DNA of 64,000 nucleotides, taken from Bacilli bacterium (GTDB lineage: Bacteria > Bacillota_I > Bacilli_A > RF39 > UBA660). The position numbers and the translations under genes are program-made. The notes below the pieces were generated by a model. It was given only the letters and a program-made list of their open reading frames with translations, was not told the DNA's origin and ran no database searches. The stretch's first letter is position 1, and the number at the start of each line of letters is the position of its first letter. Shown here piece by piece: positions 9,668 through 16,376 of this stretch. The DNA lies in the NCBI GenBank assembly GCA_017542465.1, contig JAFXXB010000020.1:10329-74328 (forward strand), written 5' to 3'.

Positions 9668-9731
9668 ATTACACCTCATAATAGTTTATTATTACTTAAA
9701 ATTATACCATAATCTTTAAAAATATAAATAA

Positions 9732-9753
9732 TCGCAATATTACTATTTTCCGA
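9732..9753. repeat. Cassette-boundary site A1 (8-6-8 quasi-palindrome)
   Basis: TCGCAATA-TTACTA-TTTTCCGA, upstream of the DUF4256 promoter. Confidence 0.7.
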
Positions 9754-9897
9754 ACATACAAAAAAGACTAGATTTCCTAGTCTTATTTATTTAATTACTT
9801 ATTGTTTTTTTGCTTTGATTGTGGCTTGAGATTACACCCAACTAAAAGCTCCAAATCCTACGAGTTTCCGTATTGTTTTTGACTAAATATTTATTAA

Positions 9898-9919
9898 TCG
9901 GAATATCCTAATCTTACGA
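9898..9919. repeat. Cassette-boundary site B1
   Basis: TCGGAATA-TCCTAA-TCTTACGA, 6 nt beyond the hydrolase stop codon. Confidence 0.7.
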
Positions 9920-9925
9920 TGCATT

Positions 9926-10915
9926 TTATTTTAAATAATCTTTTAAAAATTTTTCTATCTTATCAAATGGTATTTTATCTTTTTGATCATATAAATCTGT
10001 ATGAGTTGCTCCTGGTATAACTACTAATTCTTTATTGCTAGTATATTTAGAATCTTTAATCATATTATCATAAGCATCTTTTCCCATATAAAATGAATGA
10101 GCTTTATCTCCATGAACAATCATTACAGCACTTCTAATCTCATTAGAATAATGTAATAATCTTACATTCATCATTGAAGTACTAGATTGTATTGCCCAAC
10201 CTCCATTTGAATTTAAACTTCTCTTATGATATCCTCTTGGAGTTTTATAATATGCATGATAACCTTGTAAGAATTCAGGAGCATTTTCTGGTAACGGATC
10301 GATTACTCCACCAGCTAGAGCATATTCTCCATTCTTATAATCTTCATTTCTTTGATTGTTTAAATTAACTCTTTGTTGGTATCTTGCTTCTTCATTATCT
10401 TGTTCGTCAAAATATCCATTTCCAGCAACTCTAGACATATCATACATAGTTGATACGATAGTAGCTTTTATTCTTGTATCAATACATGCAGTTTGAAGCG
10501 CCATTCCACCCCAACCACAAATACCTATAATTCCAATACGCTCAGAATCAACATTATCTAAACTAATTAGATAATCTACTGCTGATTGAAAATCTTCTAC
10601 ATTGATGTCAAAAGATGTCATATATCTTGGTTCTCCACCTGATTCACCAGTAAACGATGGATCAAATGCAATTGTTAAGAATCCTCTTTCAGCCATTTCT
10701 TGAGCATATAATCCACTTGACTGCTCTTTTACTGCTCCATAAGGACCACTTACAGCTAAAGCTGGTAGTTTACCTTCATAATCTTTTGGCTCATACATAT
10801 CAGCTGCTAATGTAATGCCAAAATGATTTTTAAATGTTACTTTTTTGTGATTTACTTTATCACTTTGAGGGAATACTTTATCCCATTCTTGAACTAAATT
10901 TAATTCTTCTTTCAT
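9926..10915 (-). CDS. Alpha/beta hydrolase (YcjY-like)
   Basis: FTGESGGEPR, GICGWGG nucleophile elbow, ATHTDLYD; AGGAGG RBS. Confidence 0.88.
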   Translation of the reverse strand: MKEELNLVQEWDKVFPQSDKVNHKKVTFKNHFGITLAADMYEPKDYEGKLPALAVSGPYGAVKEQSSGLYAQEMAERGFLTIAFDPSFTGESGGEPRYMTSFDINVEDFQSAVDYLISLDNVDSERIGIIGICGWGGMALQTACIDTRIKATIVSTMYDMSRVAGNGYFDEQDNEEARYQQRVNLNNQRNEDYKNGEYALAGGVIDPLPENAPEFLQGYHAYYKTPRGYHKRSLNSNGGWAIQSSTSMMNVRLLHYSNEIRSAVMIVHGDKAHSFYMGKDAYDNMIKDSKYTSNKELVVIPGATHTDLYDQKDKIPFDKIEKFLKDYLK

Positions 10916-10971
10916 CATATTCCTCCTAATTATCAATAAATATTATACCACAAATTATCAAACTATAATGT

Positions 10972-10993
10972 TCGCAATATTGCTATTTTACGA
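10972..10993. repeat. Cassette-boundary site A2
   Basis: TCGCAATA-TTGCTA-TTTTACGA. Confidence 0.75.
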
Positions 10994-11008
10994 TAAAAAA
11001 AGATGTAT

Positions 11009-11075
11009 TTAAACATCTTTTTTTCTAATATCAAAACTGTTTCAACATGCCTTGTATGCGGTCAACAAACATATC
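11009..11075 (-). pseudogene. Orphan copy of rlmD 3' end (att-like scar) with downstream terminator hairpin
   Basis: Minus strand GAT ATG TTT + GTTGA + CCG CAT ACA AGG CAT GTT GAA ACA GTT TTG ATA TTA GAA... = DMF/PHTRHVETVLILEK; matches the rlmD end DMFPNTYHVETVMVLERKDV; one base lost in the A-run. Confidence 0.85.
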
Positions 11076-11096
11076 ATAATATCTTATATCTTACAA
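11074..11096. repeat. Cassette-boundary site B2 (7-nt spacer variant)
   Basis: TCATAATA-TCTTATA-TCTTACAA, 5 nt beyond the CPBP stop codon. Confidence 0.6.
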
Positions 11097-11101
11097 TCAT
11101 T

Positions 11102-11749
11102 TTAGATTAAGAATAATGCTAAAACATCTGCTAAGAAATGTGGTATCCAACTACACCATGCATTATCTGTTTCTTTAAATACCAATCCAAATAATGATGA
11201 ATCAATAAATACAAATAATAAATCATATGCTACTATTATAAAACTTCCTGCACTATAATGTCCTAATGCAAATAATAAAGATGTTACAATTATTGATAGT
11301 ATATAATGTATTTTTTTAGAAGTTTGCTTTTGAAAAAATCCTCTCCATGCTATTTCTTCTCCCAAAGTAAGAACTGCCAATGTTAAAATAGTTCTCATTA
11401 AATCAGTTGATGTGGCAAAATTAATTCTATCTTTTAAATGATTATTGAATTCTGGAATGAATTTATTTGCAATTATAGTACATAGTATAACTGATATAAA
11501 TGGTAAGAATGCATATATAATTGACTTAGGATGATCTTTAAAATCTTTAAATATAGTTTTAATATTTAATCCTTCATCTTTCGTTTTATTTGCTTTTCTA
11601 GTAACAAAGAAAGCAACTACTCCAACAATAACTGAAATACCAGAAAGTTTTAACACTTCTCCATCAATTTTAATATTCAATAAATTTGTTAATGATAATA
11701 TAGCAATTACTATTAAAAATATTACTACACTTTTATTCCCTTTATTCAT
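11102..11749 (-). CDS. CPBP/Abi (CAAX-protease-like) intramembrane protease
   Basis: GEEIAWRGF, LLFALGH, PHFLAD motifs; start at Met 11749 behind GAGGAG. Confidence 0.88.
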   Translation of the reverse strand: MNKGNKSVVIFLIVIAILSLTNLLNIKIDGEVLKLSGISVIVGVVAFFVTRKANKTKDEGLNIKTIFKDFKDHPKSIIYAFLPFISVILCTIIANKFIPEFNNHLKDRINFATSTDLMRTILTLAVLTLGEEIAWRGFFQKQTSKKIHYILSIIVTSLLFALGHYSAGSFIIVAYDLLFVFIDSSLFGLVFKETDNAWCSWIPHFLADVLALFLI

Positions 11750-11803
11750 TTTTTCAACTCCTCTATTAAACATTATACCACGAATTTTTAAAATTAAATT
11801 ACT

Positions 11804-11825
11804 TCGCAAGATTACTATATTGCGA
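11804..11825. repeat. Cassette-boundary site A3
   Basis: TCGCAAGA-TTACTA-TATTGCGA, the most symmetric copy. Confidence 0.75.
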
Positions 11826-11870
11826 TTAAATAAGTTTCGAATTTACAAAAAAACTTATCTAAAAACGTAT

Positions 11871-13316
11871 CTAAAGTTTTCCTATTTTCCGATTGCCGGG
11901 TTCAAATAAATCTATGTCTTCTATGTTAATGTCACTCATGTTAAATGATTTAAAGAAATTACTTCGTATTCCATTTAAAAGATCTTCTACAGCAATATTA
12001 TCTTCCCATGTAGGATTTAGTTCATTTTTTATACCACTTGGCCAGTCATATAAATGAAACCCACCGTTTTCTCCAATTCCCCATCTTCCATGTACAAATG
12101 CATTTCTAATCCTATTTACAGGCAATATTTTCTCACCACACTCAAAGTTTTCTTGAGAATCAACTGTTCTAAAATAAAAACTAGCTAGAAGAGCTATATT
12201 ATTCATATTTCTAGCCTCTAAATCCGATATATATTTTAAAATCAAATTAATTGTATCTGTATTATTTCCAAAACTATCATATAATAAATTTCCAGTTTGT
12301 TTTTTTCCATAATTACGCATATATTCATCTACTTTTCTTTGCATATATAAATTATATTCACTATTTGAATTATCCCAGTTGGATATAAAATTATCATAAA
12401 TAAGTATGTTTTCATTTTGATTAAATGCAGCTTTATATATTCCAATTGGCAATATTATTCTCATATAATAGATAATAAAATCAGTTAATAGTTTTCCATT
12501 CGATAAAACATCCGTGCGGCCTGCTATTTCTTTAAATTTTCTAAGCATTTCTTTTTTTTGCGTTTTTGTTAATTCATGTACTACTTTTTCAGCACCAAAT
12601 TGATTGGCTTTTTCTAACATTATTTTTTGAAAATTATTACTATCTACTCTAGATAAAGCAGCCTTATATTCCAAAGAATTCCCATCAACTATCTTTTGCG
12701 TATATAAAAATCTCACATAATTAAATCTGTCAAAAAAGGAAGACAAATCGTTTGGATCTATATCTTTTGAGTTATCTATTTCCATACCTGTTGTTGAATA
12801 TGTACTAGATGAAAGATTAATATATTTTACTAAAATTTCAATATCATTTTTGGGAATTATTAAGTTTAATGGCTTAGGTTTTGTTCCTTTCATGTCAATT
12901 ATTATATACTGTCCATCTTTTGTGATTTTATATAATTCATTAATATTACTATGAGAAAAAGCATCTCTTAAAAATTTCAAAATATTTTTCCCGCTAAAAA
13001 TTTTTTTGTCTTTTTTATCAACAAACCATCTTTCTGGTATTTCTATATTTTTGGCTTCTATATAATCAAAAACTTCATCTTTCGTTAAAGAAAATGCATC
13101 TATATATCTTAAAATTGAAATAATATTTATCATTTTGTCATAGTTCTCTTTTGTTGCTTTTGGACCATTTTTTAAACTCCTATTTAATTCATTTAAAGTT
13201 CTTATATAATTTGTCTTGTATGTATCCTGAGGAAACCTTGAATTCATATCAAGAAAGTATGTATTTAATATTAAATATAATATTATATCTGCTTTGTTTA
13301 AAGTCTTCTCCTCCAT
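11871..13316 (-). CDS. Hypothetical protein with two HEPN-like RxxxxH motifs
   Basis: LRDAFSH and IRNAFVHG, each followed by a short beta-hairpin-like stretch; own promoter, RBS and terminator. Confidence 0.6.
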   Translation of the reverse strand: MEEKTLNKADIILYLILNTYFLDMNSRFPQDTYKTNYIRTLNELNRSLKNGPKATKENYDKMINIISILRYIDAFSLTKDEVFDYIEAKNIEIPERWFVDKKDKKIFSGKNILKFLRDAFSHSNINELYKITKDGQYIIIDMKGTKPKPLNLIIPKNDIEILVKYINLSSSTYSTTGMEIDNSKDIDPNDLSSFFDRFNYVRFLYTQKIVDGNSLEYKAALSRVDSNNFQKIMLEKANQFGAEKVVHELTKTQKKEMLRKFKEIAGRTDVLSNGKLLTDFIIYYMRIILPIGIYKAAFNQNENILIYDNFISNWDNSNSEYNLYMQRKVDEYMRNYGKKQTGNLLYDSFGNNTDTINLILKYISDLEARNMNNIALLASFYFRTVDSQENFECGEKILPVNRIRNAFVHGRWGIGENGGFHLYDWPSGIKNELNPTWEDNIAVEDLLNGIRSNFFKSFNMSDINIEDIDLFEPGNRKIGKL

Positions 13317-13368
13317 TATATCAACTCCTATAATTAATTATAACATAAAAGAACGAATTCTCATCCGT

Positions 13369-13390
13369 TCTATATATCTTAATATTACGA
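13369..13390. repeat. Cassette-boundary site B4 (left arm degenerate)
   Basis: TCTATATA-TCTTAA-TATTACGA, 5 nt beyond the GNAT stop codon; spacer identical to B3. Confidence 0.55.
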
Positions 13391-13395
13391 TTACT

Positions 13396-14139
13396 TTATT
13401 TAATTAATTTTTCAAATGCATTTGCATTTAATATTGTATTTGAAACAAATTTACCTTTATAAAAGTTTGCCCAGTTATTAAATACACATGGAGCATTCTT
13501 TGCTTTCTCTAATGAGTCTATTTTTATAAAGTTTAACTTAATTTCCTTATCTTTTGCATAATCAGATAATTCTTTTACTTCATATTCTACATATGGGCAT
13601 TCATTAGAATAGTAAATAGTGAAATCTTGACTATCTATTTCCATCTTACGAGCACTATCACTAAATTTAGGTGTTTCTTTATCATCAAATTGTAATGCCA
13701 TTAATTCATAATCATTAATTGTATCTACTACTTTAAATCCATAGTGTTCAAAGAACTTCTTATCTCCAATAAATGGTTTCTTCTTTTGTGATACTAATGT
13801 ACATATACCACTCATTTTTTTCTTTTTAGCATCTTCAATAGCATATTCTAATAATTCTTTACCAATACCTTTTCCTTTAAAACTACCAGCAACCCATAAA
13901 CAGTAAATATGCATATAATTTTTACCGTTAATAGGAACCCAAGCTGTTTCTATTGGTTCATATTCAATAAAGATTTTACCTCTTGCATTTAGCTTTCTAA
14001 ATACATGACCATCCTTTATTTTACTTTTAATCCATTCTTTCTTTTTATCAACACCATCTTGATGTTTAGGATCTCCTATAGCACAACAAATATGCTCTTC
14101 ATCAATATTCTTTTCATCTAAATTAATGTACTCATTCAT
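13396..14139 (-). CDS. GNAT N-acetyltransferase with C-terminal YoaP domain
   Basis: EEHICCAI, FIEYEPIETAW, CLWVAGSFKGKGIGKELL, CPY...APCVFNNW. Confidence 0.88.
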   Translation of the reverse strand: MNEYINLDEKNIDEEHICCAIGDPKHQDGVDKKKEWIKSKIKDGHVFRKLNARGKIFIEYEPIETAWVPINGKNYMHIYCLWVAGSFKGKGIGKELLEYAIEDAKKKKMSGICTLVSQKKKPFIGDKKFFEHYGFKVVDTINDYELMALQFDDKETPKFSDSARKMEIDSQDFTIYYSNECPYVEYEVKELSDYAKDKEIKLNFIKIDSLEKAKNAPCVFNNWANFYKGKFVSNTILNANAFEKLIK

Positions 14140-14199
14140 ACTCACACCTCTATATTCATTATAGCACAAATTTTTACTATTTTTTTCTTACTTGCTTCT

Positions 14200-14221
14200 T
14201 CGGAATACTACTATTTTACGA
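14200..14221. repeat. Cassette-boundary site A4
   Basis: TCGGAATA-CTACTA-TTTTACGA, identical to A5. Confidence 0.8.
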
Positions 14222-14236
14222 TTAAAAAGATGTCTT

Positions 14237-14304
14237 TTAAACATCTTTCTTTTCTAAAACCATAAGGCTTTCAACATGCCTAGTATGCGGTCAACGAACA
14301 TATC
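14237..14304 (-). pseudogene. Orphan copy of rlmD 3' end (att-like scar) with downstream terminator hairpin
   Basis: Minus strand GAT ATG TTC + GTTGA + CCG CAT ACT AGG CAT GTT GAA AGC CTT ATG GTT TTA GAA AAG AAA GAT GTT TAA = DMF/PHTRHVESLMVLEKKDV*. Confidence 0.88.
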
Positions 14305-14324
14305 GTAATATCTTAATCTTGCGA
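14303..14324. repeat. Cassette-boundary site B3
   Basis: TCGTAATA-TCTTAA-TCTTGCGA; its reverse complement matches A3 at 19/22. Confidence 0.75.
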
Positions 14325-14332
14325 TTATTCTA

Positions 14333-15088
14333 TTAATTAAAAATCTTTTTCTTATTATTTATTTTAACTAGAACTAGTGACATTATTACTAATATAATTG
14401 ATGTTACTAAACTACCAATAATATTTTCATTAATTATATATATACCACTTAATGAATTTACAATACAATGAAATAATACACATAAACATACACTATTAGT
14501 ATTTTTTCTAATACTTGCTAAAGCAAAAGCTAAACCTAATACACTTATACCAAAAGCAAAATAGTTTTGTCCATATTGGGCAACTCCTTGAATAAAGAAT
14601 AAAGGTAAATGCCATATCCACCATATAACACTGACAACTAATGTTGATAAAAGAAAATTATGTTTCTTTTCTAATTCAGATTGTAAAATATATCTCCATC
14701 CAGCTTCTTCTAATCCACCACCAATTAACATTATGGGTATCATAAGAACAATTGCATATAAAGGAAAACCACTTTCATATCCTGAAATAAATATTTGAGG
14801 TAAAATATATACTACACCTAAAAATATCACCATTAAATAGGATAATAGATTATGTTTGAAATCAAAAATATGTTTAACCCAATCTTTAAATCCTTTAATT
14901 TGCTTGTTTTTCTTTAGTGATATATAAGAAGCAATAGTTGGAGACCAGCCTCCAATCAAATATGGAACATATAATAATAGATTATCTTTTAATATAATTC
15001 CATTTATACTGCAAACTATTAATGTTCCCCAACAAATAATCATTATTAAAAATGTAATTGATAAATAATCTTTAATTAATTTATTCAT
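14333..15088 (-). CDS. CPBP/Abi intramembrane protease
   Basis: GGGLEEAGWRY, WWIWHLPLF, CVLFHCIVN motifs. Confidence 0.88.
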   Translation of the reverse strand: MNKLIKDYLSITFLIMIICWGTLIVCSINGIILKDNLLLYVPYLIGGWSPTIASYISLKKNKQIKGFKDWVKHIFDFKHNLLSYLMVIFLGVVYILPQIFISGYESGFPLYAIVLMIPIMLIGGGLEEAGWRYILQSELEKKHNFLLSTLVVSVIWWIWHLPLFFIQGVAQYGQNYFAFGISVLGLAFALASIRKNTNSVCLCVLFHCIVNSLSGIYIINENIIGSLVTSIILVIMSLVLVKINNKKKIFN

Positions 15089-15140
15089 ATAATCAACTCC
15101 TTCTAATATATTATATCATTCTTTTTATCTTTCTTGCTCA

Positions 15141-15162
15141 TCGGAATACTACTATTTTACGA
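15141..15162. repeat. Cassette-boundary site A5, just beyond the rlmD terminator
   Basis: TCGGAATA-CTACTA-TTTTACGA. Confidence 0.8.
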
Positions 15163-15179
15163 TTAAAAAAAGATGTCTT

Positions 15180-16376
15180 TTAAACATCTTTCCTTTCTAA
15201 AACCATAACTGTTTCCACATGATATGTATTAGGAAACATATCAAGACCATATATCTTTTTAATATTATAATGTTCTTTTAATATATTTATATCTCTAGCT
15301 AATGTCATTGGATCACATGATACATATCCAATCATATTAGGTTTAATCTTAATTATATCTTTAATAGTTTTATCATTTAATCCTGATCTAGGTGGATCAA
15401 CAATAATAATATCTATCTTGTCATTTATTTTATTTAACATAACTGATGTATCATCAGCATAATATTTATAATCTTTAACACCATTTAATTTAGCATTATC
15501 ATTTGCATCTTTAATAGCATTAGCTATCTTCTCTATGCCTATTATTTTTTTAACCTTATCTTTCATAGATATTCCCATTACACCTGAACCACAGTAAAGG
15601 TCTAATAAAGTATTACCTTCTAAATAATTATTTAATATCTTAAATATTTCATTAGCAATATAATTATTTATTTGAAAGAATGAATTATATGATACTTTAA
15701 AATTATAATCACCTATTTTATCTTTAAAATATGATTCACCATATACTACTTTATCATTAATGATTATACCTACAATATTCTCAGGTATATCATCATGTAA
15801 TTCATATTTACTAGTGTTAATAACTAATAAGATATCATCATTATAATTAGTTCTTATAGTTATATCTCCATCATATATATAAATAAAACTATGATTACCT
15901 ATTATCTCATTAATTGTATTGTTAGCAAGTAAACATCTATTAATATATACATCATCATGGGAATCTTTATTGTAATAAGAAAACTTATTCTTATTAACTC
16001 TTAAAGTTATCTTATTTCTATAGAATAAATCTTTATTAGATTCTATTAGTTTAATCTCAGTATCAATACCAGCATATTTAAATAATATATCTTTTAATCT
16101 ATTCTTCTTAAATTCCATTTGTTTATCAAATGGCATATGCATTAAAGTACATCCACCACATTCATTTATATAAGGACACTTAGGTTGTATTCTATCTTGT
16201 GATGATTTAATAATATTTATAACTTTAGCTAAATAATATTTAGATGTCTCTTTAATAATTTCTACTTCTACTTCTTCATCTATTAATGCATTATAAACAA
16301 ATACTATCTTATTATTATAGTATGAAATACCTCTACCTTGATTATCAATTTTATTAATTGTTAGTTTTGTATGCAT
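15180..16376 (-). CDS. rlmD: 23S rRNA (uracil-C5)-methyltransferase RlmD/RumA
   Basis: TRAM domain, CPYINECGGC Fe-S motif, SFFQIN, DLYCGSG, VDPPRSG, YVSCDP, DMFPNTYHVE. Confidence 0.93.
   Translation of the reverse strand: MHTKLTINKIDNQGRGISYYNNKIVFVYNALIDEEVEVEIIKETSKYYLAKVINIIKSSQDRIQPKCPYINECGGCTLMHMPFDKQMEFKKNRLKDILFKYAGIDTEIKLIESNKDLFYRNKITLRVNKNKFSYYNKDSHDDVYINRCLLANNTINEIIGNHSFIYIYDGDITIRTNYNDDILLVINTSKYELHDDIPENIVGIIINDKVVYGESYFKDKIGDYNFKVSYNSFFQINNYIANEIFKILNNYLEGNTLLDLYCGSGVMGISMKDKVKKIIGIEKIANAIKDANDNAKLNGVKDYKYYADDTSVMLNKINDKIDIIIVDPPRSGLNDKTIKDIIKIKPNMIGYVSCDPMTLARDINILKEHYNIKKIYGLDMFPNTYHVETVMVLERKDV

Follow-up and report, generated by a model that had tools for sequence, protein, structure and literature searches.

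Two orphan 3' ends of the rlmD gene in the window (the whole stretch of 64,000 nucleotides of a Bacilli bacterium contig) are in all likelihood seams between site-specific cassettes inserted into rlmD. The reading favoured here is a stack of such cassettes, free of recombinase genes and joined at CAY NNN GA, and it is probable that a recombinase, most likely of the serine type, is supplied in trans.

Both orphan ends with a common GTTGA, described in an earlier sequence-only reading, were located on the minus strand (11041-11075 and 14270-14304), where they read GATATGTTY-GTTGA-CCGCATACWAGGCATGTTGAA. The 35-nt pattern GATATGTTYGTTGACCGCATACWAGGCATGTTGAA has exactly two matches in the window, each without mismatches; it did not occur in 100 shuffles and has no further match in the 1.09-Mb genome. 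Once the five nucleotides are taken out, both orphans encode PHTRHVE, whereas the host rlmD encodes PNTYH. The native gene ends in GAT ATG TTT CCT AAT ACA TAT CAT GTG GAA ... GTT TAA (minus strand). Without the five nucleotides the tail of the 14.2-kb orphan continues as ...VLEKKDV-stop. The alignment shows a single-base deletion in the 11-kb orphan, which puts the KDV stop out of reach. Downstream of each orphan lie the same terminator hairpin and 22-bp 'A' site as behind the native rlmD.

The array has the order rlmD, tail-genes-P, tail-genes-P and so on (Table 1). The left end of a cassette, P', is an in-frame substitute for the last ~11-13 rlmD codons; in the window, a terminator and an A site come after it. 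Between P' and the right end, the P arm, there are one to three cargo genes, giving units of 0.6-4 kb, many of which have their own promoter and terminator. Since cassettes start with a tail and end with a P arm, the orphans are seams between cassettes: each would consist of the P arm of cassette n joined to the P' tail of cassette n-1, with GTTGA as a P-arm spacer of fixed length. The cargo of rlmD cassettes includes CPBP immunity-type proteases, acetyltransferases, hydrolases and candidate defence genes.

Table 1. Features of rlmD and the adjoining cassette array (positions in the window).
Feature	Position	Strand	Remarks
rlmD (23S rRNA m5U methyltransferase)	15180..16376	-	Pfam PF05958 and TRAM domains
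attL-like junction	15213..15242	-	B arm GATATGTTT-CCTAATACATATCAT, then GTG GAA
Replacement rlmD tail (TVMVLERKDV-stop), terminator hairpin, A site (15141-15162)	15141..15212	-	left end (P') of rlmD-proximal cassette
Cassette a cargo: CPBP/Rce1-like membrane protease (immunity-type protein)	14333..15088	-	Pfam PF02517
B site TCGCAAGATTAAGATATTACGA	14303..14324	-	second site class; fused to P arm
Orphan 2	14270..14304	-	P arm of cassette a (GATATGTTC-GTTGA-CCGCATACTAGGCAT), then GTT GAA starting the tail of the next cassette
Tail (SLMVLEKKDV-stop), terminator, A site (14200-14221)	14200..14269	-	left end of cassette b
Cassette b cargo	11102..14169	-	
GNAT-YoaP acetyltransferase	13396-14169	-	cassette b
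B-type site	13369-13390	-	cassette b
481-aa protein without Pfam match	11871-13316	-	cassette b
Hybrid A/B site	11804-11825	-	cassette b
Second CPBP protein	11102-11809	-	cassette b
Orphan 1	11041..11098	-	degenerate B site and P arm of cassette b (GATATGTTT-GTTGA-CCGCATACAAGGCAT), then GTT GAA
Tail with one-base deletion (KDV stop lost), terminator, A site (10972-10993)	10972..11040	-	left end of cassette c
Cassette c and beyond	9732..10936	-	
Alpha/beta hydrolase	9926-10936	-	cassette c and beyond
B site	9898-9919	-	cassette c and beyond
Remnant similar to a large serine recombinase gene 3' end, plus its terminator	9754-9897	-	
A site	9732-9753	-	cassette c and beyond

The rlmD gene at the head of the array has genus orthologues with 70-78% nucleotide identity. 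Its host-derived part stops at about the His codon (15219-15221), and the crossover interval of the attL-like junction, CAT GTG GA, occupies positions 15214-15221. The Glu codon at this junction is the 11th from the rlmD 3' end, as in the streptococcal rumA target (PMC4120198). The insertion lies in the 3'-terminal codons of rumA/rlmD at the HVE motif, with the gene end replaced. The rlmD site itself reads GATATGTTTCCTAATACATATCATGTGGAAACAGTTATGGTTTTAGAAAGG. Most members of the genus have different rlmD tails and no array, and in six of them the empty site is seen as an rlmD with another tail. The tail, terminator and A site of the rlmD-proximal cassette also follow rlmD in other genera, with ~90% identity (G274, G048, L096). 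A clean single insertion was found in L072: behind rlmD and its new tail come a 182-aa gene, a P arm and then the old tail of the host, including the terminator of that tail. Similar single insertions are present in L101 and G004 (L023).

The P arm is non-coding. Its core is ATGTTC-N5-C..CATACWAGGCAY, and the full form contains two to three tandem units of ~32 nt, (ATATGTTY-N5-(A/C)C..CATAC..) x 2-3, closing with the core. A pattern search yielded ~22 true matches in 18 GTDB species genomes and ~50 in metagenome contigs, and there were matches in five genera of the family. The total is ~80 distinct copies in ~19 species genomes and ~50 metagenome contigs, nearly all from low-GC rumen or gut Bacilli; there was no match in IMG/VR, the phage collection or PLSDB plasmids. 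In every contig that reaches far enough, rlmD lies upstream of the P arm on the same strand. The five variable nucleotides are flanked by two blocks with ~2 bits per position. Among 78 copies the most common spacers are GTCAT (21), GTTGA (18), AATGA (16), GTTCA (8) and GTTAT (5); GTTGA, common to both orphans, is one among several. The outer GATATGTTY is exactly five nucleotides farther from the crossover in 79 of 83 P-arm copies than in 29 rlmD genes. The five nucleotides are evidently a spacer of a conserved P arm, not a mutation in a copied rlmD. Three other readings were considered and rejected. Firstly, a covarying hairpin around ATGTTC (AACGA/TCGTT versus ATGAC/GTCAT) does not hold, as its two palindromes differ in register and are missing from the AATGA subtype. 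Secondly, a Tn916-type coupling sequence or a 5-bp target duplication does not fit the order of the junctions. Finally, the P arm does not look like what is left of a serine recombinase gene at its 3' end, in the style of streptococcal rumA ICEs: every upstream frame is closed, and the C-termini of four large serine recombinases (LSRs), used as tblastn queries, revealed no serine recombinase remnants upstream of any P arm.

The crossover is placed in CAY-NNN-GA because attL retains the host-type CCNAAYACNTAYCAY, whereas the distal joints and attR carry the element-type CCGCATACWAGGCAY, even before the host's own original tail. The exchange evidently occurs within the His-x-Glu codons (CAY NNN GA). 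GTTGA itself, at the boundary between DMF and PHT, is not where recombination takes place; the crossover lies ~20 nt downstream of it. GA follows the codon next to CAY in 72 of 78 copies, and the codon between CAY and GA has a mutual information of 1.15 with the right-hand tail versus 0.36 with the P-arm subtype. LSRs exchange strands at a central dinucleotide of 2 bp that both partners have in common, and need no further identity. The only invariant positions near the junction are CA(Y) and GA, and the exchange is narrowed to an interval of 8 bp. Half-sites of LSR att sites are imperfect dyads around the crossover; dyad symmetry of the rlmD site is weak, 10.5 of 26 around GA (background ~7.4), with none around CA, and the strongest palindrome lies wholly within the left arm. 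A crossover at GATATGTT or between DMF and P, including integration at the B/rlmD junction, was rejected, as attL has the host P-N-T-Y-H codons and attR has element-type codons.

Among ~35 arrays with rlmD on the same sequence piece, none contains a recombinase (neither a resolvase or recombinase domain nor a tyrosine integrase), and no LSR was found in or beside any array. Four of six array-bearing relatives have no serine recombinase gene with a resolvase domain, one of them a 94%-complete assembly of six contigs. The genome of the window has one serine recombinase, an LSR on another contig (C46). This LSR and the 591-aa LSR type of relatives were rejected as cognate enzymes, as both adjoin tRNA genes and their presence does not track that of P arms. 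On the other hand, single serine integrases in Firmicutes have rumA/rlmD as their standard target (PMC4701971, PMC4120198, PMC5357655, PMC12785378). The vanG and ICE-r elements enter rumA at the Glu codon, the 11th counted from the 3' end, and are sometimes arranged in tandem (PMC4120198). [quoted passage not shown] Streptococcal Javan prophages, used as comparators, carry recombinase triplets.

In serine integrases, attP half-sites place the outer motif of the zinc-ribbon domain 5 bp farther out from the crossover than attB half-sites do (PMC3783163). The +5 shift of the P arm agrees with this rule, but it is confined to the left arm. Cassette and host have equally spaced right arms because both are in-frame tails, and the joint of P and P' would therefore be an asymmetric attP, unlike canonical sites. 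The sequence-only reading took the orphans for attP-derived scars of an rlmD-targeting serine integrase. Element-derived att joints and the shift itself stand, but no LSR was found in or beside the arrays and the shift is one-armed; for these two reasons we infer a serine recombinase with reserve, considering it somewhat favoured.

A heterobivalent tyrosine integrase, for instance one from the Int+Mob IMEs that are common in the family, could move the same cassettes, with the GATATGTTC units as arm-type sites and CAY-NNN-GA as the overlap. Indeed, tandem ~32-nt units like those of the P arm are absent from canonical serine-integrase attP and are more like arm-type sites, and IMEs with a tyrosine integrase and Mob_Pre are located directly behind B sites in relatives (L032, L035). 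The conserved CA and GA around four variable nucleotides could form a 7-8-bp overlap. However, this putative overlap differs between partners, and the junction contains no identical 6-8-bp overlap of the kind needed by lambda-type tyrosine integrases. The genome of the window has no PF00589 gene and no match to two tyrosine-integrase seeds, none of the rlmD arrays contains a tyrosine integrase, and the published rumA-specific integrases are all of the serine type. We consider this alternative unlikely.

The A and B sites form a second class of sites, 22 bp in length; A in reverse complement is similar to B, agreeing with it at 16 of 22 positions. Within the family, 21 of 150 genera have the B motif, with three hits for a reversed-pattern control. 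Both P-arm arrays without any A or B sites (G107 L062, L128, L137) and arrays with B sites but no P arms exist. The two classes are thus separable, in line with the earlier suggestion of two recombination systems in one cassette. The proposed overlap of orphan and B site is real, as the GA of GATATG at the 14.2-kb orphan forms the last two bases of B, and a degenerate B site lies upstream of the 11-kb orphan. However, the overlap is secondary: metagenome contig L171, which is 98.5% identical to window 14283-15131 (cassette a), has 78 extra nucleotides between B and the P arm, lost in the window through a deletion between GATATGTTC repeats. A fold of the attC kind, in which B and A would pair on either side of the orphan, was rejected, as the sequence between them is asymmetric. 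The Xer-site-flanked pdif modules of Acinetobacter plasmids are similar to the A/B modules in that 22-bp quasi-palindromes of alternating orientation bracket single-gene modules. However, the A and B sites are shorter than dif (28 bp), the genome has no Xer gene, and the arrays are chromosomal.

It is possible in principle, but we think doubtful, that the orphans are passive old scars trapped between B and A and copied by A/B recombination (pdif/Xer-like or by a small serine recombinase), with no exchange between P and P' in the window. Both orphans are bracketed by B and A sites, the A/B-bounded sub-modules of cassette b are in a different order in L129, and serine recombinase genes of 412-566 aa adjoin A or B sites in relatives. 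However, a dead scar would lose the conservation and the fixed spacer length observed in the non-coding P arm. Moreover, P/P' joints occur in the arrays wholly without A/B sites, and the clean single insertions display both the junction of rlmD with P' and that of P with the old tail.

The 11-kb module (window 10162-11077) is 96.7% identical to a contig of a sheep-ileum MAG (L075), and the 14-kb module (window 13313-14348) shares 92.9% identity with a genome from another genus (G274, L061). Cassettes are 92-98.5% identical across hosts, whereas rlmD itself is just 65-78% identical in the genomes matching the modules. This supports separate foreign origins of the two orphans, as previously proposed: their sequences differ, and each has its own best match in another genome. 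Cassettes have evidently been exchanged between genera, as judged from these identities. Transfer by transformation or conjugation, followed by homologous recombination via the rlmD end, tails and P arms with no site-specific enzyme, is improbable. The flanks (tail, terminator, A site and P arm) have sufficient length and an identity of 80-95% among arrays, and deletions between GATATGTTC repeats did happen, but the same few junction bases are used with unrelated host tails and rlmD proteins of just 35-60% identity, and when an empty site is entered for the first time there is no homology on the right-hand side. That the orphans are left over from a second full-length rlmD paralog or from local tandem duplications, as the canonical PHTxHVE motif might suggest, is very improbable and had already been doubted, as the closest relatives of each orphan are in other genera and the likeness to rlmD begins at the same base in ~80 copies, never extending upstream beyond the last ~17 codons.

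The stack of recombinase-less cassettes may be built as follows. The P/P' joint of a circular cassette would recombine site-specifically with rlmD inside the His-x-Glu codons. As the incoming P' imitates the rlmD tail, the rlmD-proximal junction would stay target-like and usable by the next cassette, which would enter there and shift older ones downstream. A large serine recombinase of the rumA/rlmD type, encoded by an ICE, IME or phage outside the array, would act in trans, and the cassettes would be cis-mobilizable hitch-hikers.

Known serine-integrase elements of rumA/rlmD include streptococcal ICEs and IMEs of integrase family Ser_4, vanG and ICE-r elements, phi-m46.1-type and Erysipelothrix phiEr670-type prophages and C. 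difficile CTn5. Like the cassettes, they supply a new gene end and leave orphan tails after tandem insertion (PMC4120198, PMC4701971; FM864213). However, they are 10-60 kb in length, with the integrase at the right end and the att site within the integrase gene, whereas the cassettes are far shorter, carry cargo only and have a non-coding, repeat-bearing P arm in an array without recombinase. Their hosts also differ from those of the cassettes, which are uncultured low-GC Bacilli with 1-Mb genomes.

In staphylococci, the rRNA methyltransferase gene rlmH (orfX) is the target of the Ccr serine recombinases of SCCmec, pseudo-SCC and composite SCC elements, which act at its 3' end and keep its reading frame. 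SCC units flanked by repeated integration-site sequences stack, and units without ccr are mobilised in trans. The rlmD cassettes share with them the location at the 3' terminus of such a gene, the preserved reading frame and the stacking, but the target gene and site differ, SCC units are much larger, and ccr is usually present somewhere in the array. CIMEs at the att sites of ICESt1 and ICESt3 are flanked by att sites, lack recombination and transfer genes, grow by site-specific accretion and are moved by helpers. The rlmD cassettes have the same structure, flanked by att sites and without integrase and transfer genes, and may likewise be moved by a helper. However, CIMEs are products of decay that rely on tyrosine integrases at the 3' end of fda, whereas the ends of the rlmD cassettes are strongly conserved over ~80 copies, which suggests a maintained life-style. 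Integron cassettes (attI/attC, IntI) are also mostly single-gene units arrayed at one fixed site, with the newest presumably proximal, and drawn from a pool common to different hosts. On the other hand, the genome here has no IntI or tyrosine recombinase, the insertion is inside a coding sequence, and no attC-like palindromes or hairpins were found in the inter-cassette regions, so the arrays are not integrons.

Elements targeting rumA through serine recombinases and SCC-like stacking are already known; the large pool of cargo-only rlmD cassettes is apparently undescribed. ATGTTC-N5-C..CATACWAGGCAY followed by NNN-GA is a searchable signature for them. They raise the question of whether a serine integrase can use one attP-type and one attB-type arm, so that integration renews its own target. 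If it can, this would account for the build-up of gene arrays at rumA/rlmD in Firmicutes, including those beside resistance-carrying ICEs, and would offer a design hint for repeated, stackable integration with serine integrases. Tentatively, rlmD may serve as a gene-capture platform in uncultured low-GC rumen and gut Bacilli, with cassettes whose asymmetric att site combines a left arm of attP-type (+5) spacing with a right arm that imitates the rlmD tail in frame at attB-type spacing, a self-regenerating target, open-ended stacking and a trans-acting serine recombinase not kept by the host, a serine counterpart of the integron with a pool common to several genera.

The native rlmD gene is followed on the same strand by two orphan copies of its 3' end, both carrying the 35-mer GATATGTTYGTTGACCGCATACWAGGCATGTTGAA. 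This 35-mer has no third copy anywhere in the genome (1.09 Mb), the window included, and did not occur in 100 shuffles, so the pair is far above chance expectation. In the alignment of all three rlmD ends the native gene has a 5-nt gap relative to both orphans, and the same terminator hairpin and a 22-bp A site lie 3' of every end. The GA of the orphan GATATG is the final GA of a 22-bp B site. The sequence-only reading had described the 35-mer, the gap and the overlap with the B site accurately, and the orphan fragments are foreign. They lie within region 9730-15170, where one-gene modules are stacked, every one on the rlmD strand. The host genome is a MAG of 1.09 Mb (26% GC, 87% complete). 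Identity to other hosts is far higher in the window segments tabulated below than in rlmD (65-78%).

Features of the rlmD region and best-matching segments in other hosts
Feature	Position	Strand	Remarks
rlmD	15180-16376	minus	ends ...GAT ATG TTT CCT AAT ACA TAT CAT GTG GAA ACA GTT ATG GTT TTA GAA AGG AAA GAT GTT TAA
Orphan 35-mer	14270-14304	minus	downstream of rlmD
Orphan 35-mer	11041-11075	minus	downstream of rlmD
Module: CPBP protease
Module: GNAT-YoaP acetyltransferase	13396-14169
Module: 481-aa protein	11871-13316		no Pfam match; between B-type site and hybrid A/B site
Module: second CPBP protease
Module: alpha/beta hydrolase
Module: DUF4256 protein
B site	9898-9919	minus
Spacer	9754-9897	minus
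A site	9732-9753	minus
Segment matching L171 (metagenome contig)	14283-15131		98.5% identity
Segment matching G274 (another genus)	13313-14348		92.9% identity
Segment matching locus L129	11074-11833		95.3% identity
Segment matching locus L075	10162-11077		96.7% identity

The GNAT-YoaP cassette is very widely travelled. It occurs with about 94-97% protein and 89-94% DNA identity in at least eight other genomes or contigs from several genera, and its location varies: after rlmD, after secA-linked IMEs (L035) or after a recombinase gene (L065).

A search of 300 genomes of the family with the pattern ATGTTY-N5-CNN-CATACWAGGCAY, which describes the right end of the cassettes (the P arm), found arrays in four other genera. 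The GTDB species collection yielded 38 matches, about 22 of them real; all the real ones are in MAGs from rumen or gut with the titles Bacilli, 'Erysipelotrichaceae', Tenericutes or Firmicutes. A metagenome scan added about 50 more. Wherever the contig is long enough, rlmD lies upstream of the P arms on the same strand. A typical array (rlmD, cassette, P arm, KDV tail, A site) was also found on contig CAZRJK010000025.1, titled 'uncultured Muribaculaceae' (Bacteroidota), which points to a binning error or else to transfer between phyla.

ATGTTY stands exactly 8 nt upstream of CATACWAGGCAY, that is, at +5 relative to rlmD, in 79 of the 83 distinct sites; two others have a point mutation with unchanged spacing, two have deletions, and none has the native rlmD spacing. 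Information content reaches about 2 bits in two blocks, ATGTTC and C..CATACTAGGCA, with a variable pentamer between them (GTCAT 21, GTTGA 18, AATGA 16, GTTCA 8, GTTAT 5). The five nucleotides, previously taken for an insertion event, are the spacer of a conserved element end. One or two extra degenerate copies of the unit are found upstream, at 32 nt and about 78 nt; we use the name P arm for the whole structure, these copies included.

After ...AGGCAY comes one codon (GTN 49, TGY 15, ATH 11), then GA in 72 of 78 copies, and then an rlmD-like tail, E-x-[VI]-x-x-L-E-[KR].... The tails have three forms. Firstly, there is the KDV-stop-terminator-A-site tail, as in the window. Secondly, a short ...ILERK-stop tail contains GAAAGGA codons forming the Shine-Dalgarno box for the following gene, whose start is a few bases on. 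Finally, the host's original tail with its own terminator closes the far end of the array. Clean cases are the loci L072 and L101 and a contig of a relative, G004:C19. L072 has rlmD with a new tail, then a 182-aa gene and a P arm, and joined to these the old tail with its terminator. In G004:C19, rlmD after ...ACATATCAT is joined to TGCGAAAG...RR-stop, followed by a 338-aa gene and then by ...CTAGCCAT/GTGGAAACGG, the native tail. Since the tails after P arms are rlmD-like, and given these clean cases, the unit is a replacement tail (P'), cargo and a P arm, and the array has the layout rlmD-unit-unit-...-old tail. Both orphans of the window are seams between units of such an rlmD-specific stack. 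In the window, even the 'native' rlmD tail is probably a P', that of the proximal unit. Other genera also have this tail, with its terminator and A site, behind rlmD at about 90% identity. In six further species of the window's genus rlmD ends in different tails and no array follows; their rlmD genes are empty sites.

In short-tail cassettes (L062, L064, L094, L137 and other type-2 joints) the cargo gene starts 2-6 nt past the rlmD stop. As the replacement rlmD codons ...TTAGAAAGGAAnTAA double as its ribosome-binding site, expression of the cargo is coupled to transcription and translation of rlmD.

The rlmD-proximal junction always keeps the host's CCNAAYACNTAYCAY (P-N-T-Y-H), and the distal junction carries CCGCATACWAGGCAY (P-H-T-R-H) even before the host's original tail. 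With host codons proximal and element codons distal, the exchange must therefore occur to the right of these codons and not between DMF and P, where the sequence-only reading had placed it; the true position is about 20 nt downstream. The codon after CAY shares more mutual information with the right-hand tail (1.15) than with the subtype of the P arm (0.36). In lineages whose tails read E[TC]VCLL, this codon is Val at every distal joint and in L119, the only intact gene examined, and Cys at the rlmD-proximal junction where that junction is on the same contig (L132, L149). The codon association and the Val/Cys distribution point to an exchange at the CAY end of the 8-bp interval CAY-NNN-GA. The GA is the second-best symmetry centre (10.5 of 26) in a scan of 29 rlmD ends. 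In streptococci the exchange is placed at the GA of the Glu codon 11th from the gene end (PMC4120198), and the Glu codon at the window's junction is the same codon.

In both A and B sites, inverted arms of 9 bp (TCGNAAKAT) enclose a 4-bp centre that reads AGTA in A and TAAG in B; the reverse complement of A resembles B. In L171, which has the same CPBP cassette, two extra GATATGTTC units (78 nt) stand between B and the P arm. Deletion between GATATGTTC repeats removed those 78 nt from the window copy, and the contact of orphan and B site is secondary. B and the crossover are 50-110 nt apart in many other arrays. Type-2 arrays such as that of the related genome G107 have no A or B sites at all, and B-only arrays without P arms, away from rlmD, occur in 21 of 150 genera, adjoining IMEs with tyrosine integrase and Mob genes or serine recombinase genes. 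The P-arm system and the A/B sites are separable site classes, as the proposal of two systems had it. In arrays from these 21 of 150 genera B sites come directly past stop codons. In relatives (L032, L033, L035, L066, L067, L069, L182, L183) they directly adjoin tyrosine-integrase and Mob_Pre IMEs and serine recombinase genes of 412-591 aa. The stretch at 9754-9897, between a B and an A site, matches the final ~100 nt of the gene for a 566-aa large serine recombinase in the same genus (G002:C15), and the match runs on through the terminator of that gene (identical, aagactag.gaaatctagtc) and its A site; to judge by this alignment, the stretch looks like a remnant of a recombinase gene that was deleted.

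The sequence-only reading, which combined an element arm offset by 5 bp, two nested site systems and a serine recombinase directed at rlmD, is supported in outline, with the crossover, the insertion and the B-site contact corrected. As to the enzyme, the rlmD end is a published target of single serine integrases of ICEs, IMEs and prophages (PMC4701971, PMC5357655, PMC4120198, PMC12785378), and no more than 2-3 bases around the exchange are identical. The zinc-ribbon-domain motif occupies half-site positions 16-24 in attP and 11-19 in attB (PMC3783163). With the centre taken at CA, the outer motif lies at positions 14-22 in rlmD and 19-27 in the P arm; being 5 bp farther out on the element arm, it would reproduce the attP/attB relation and argues for a serine recombinase. 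Against it, the +5 shift affects one arm only, the P arm contains tandem units, and no array examined has a serine recombinase gene. No remnant of one was found upstream of P arms, four of six array-bearing relatives lack the enzyme, and the phage, plasmid and IMG/VR collections contain no P-arm matches. In the window's own genome no tyrosine recombinase of any kind, Xer included, was detected at 87% completeness, and the single serine recombinase adjoins a tRNA gene and is cut off by the end of another contig, C46; the same element is present in G104, another genus.

The characterised rum-integrating streptococcal prophage phi-m46.1 has stacked orphan tails at its right end, as in the window, and this too speaks for a serine recombinase. 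In FM864213 (56780-57060) two successive orphan rum tails lie past the prophage right end, with about 70 nt including a terminator between them; they may mark another stacked small unit that lacks a recombinase. We infer a helper-dependent life-style, which fits the evidence both for and against a serine recombinase: cassettes would accrete next to an rlmD-integrating ICE or phage and then be co-excised.
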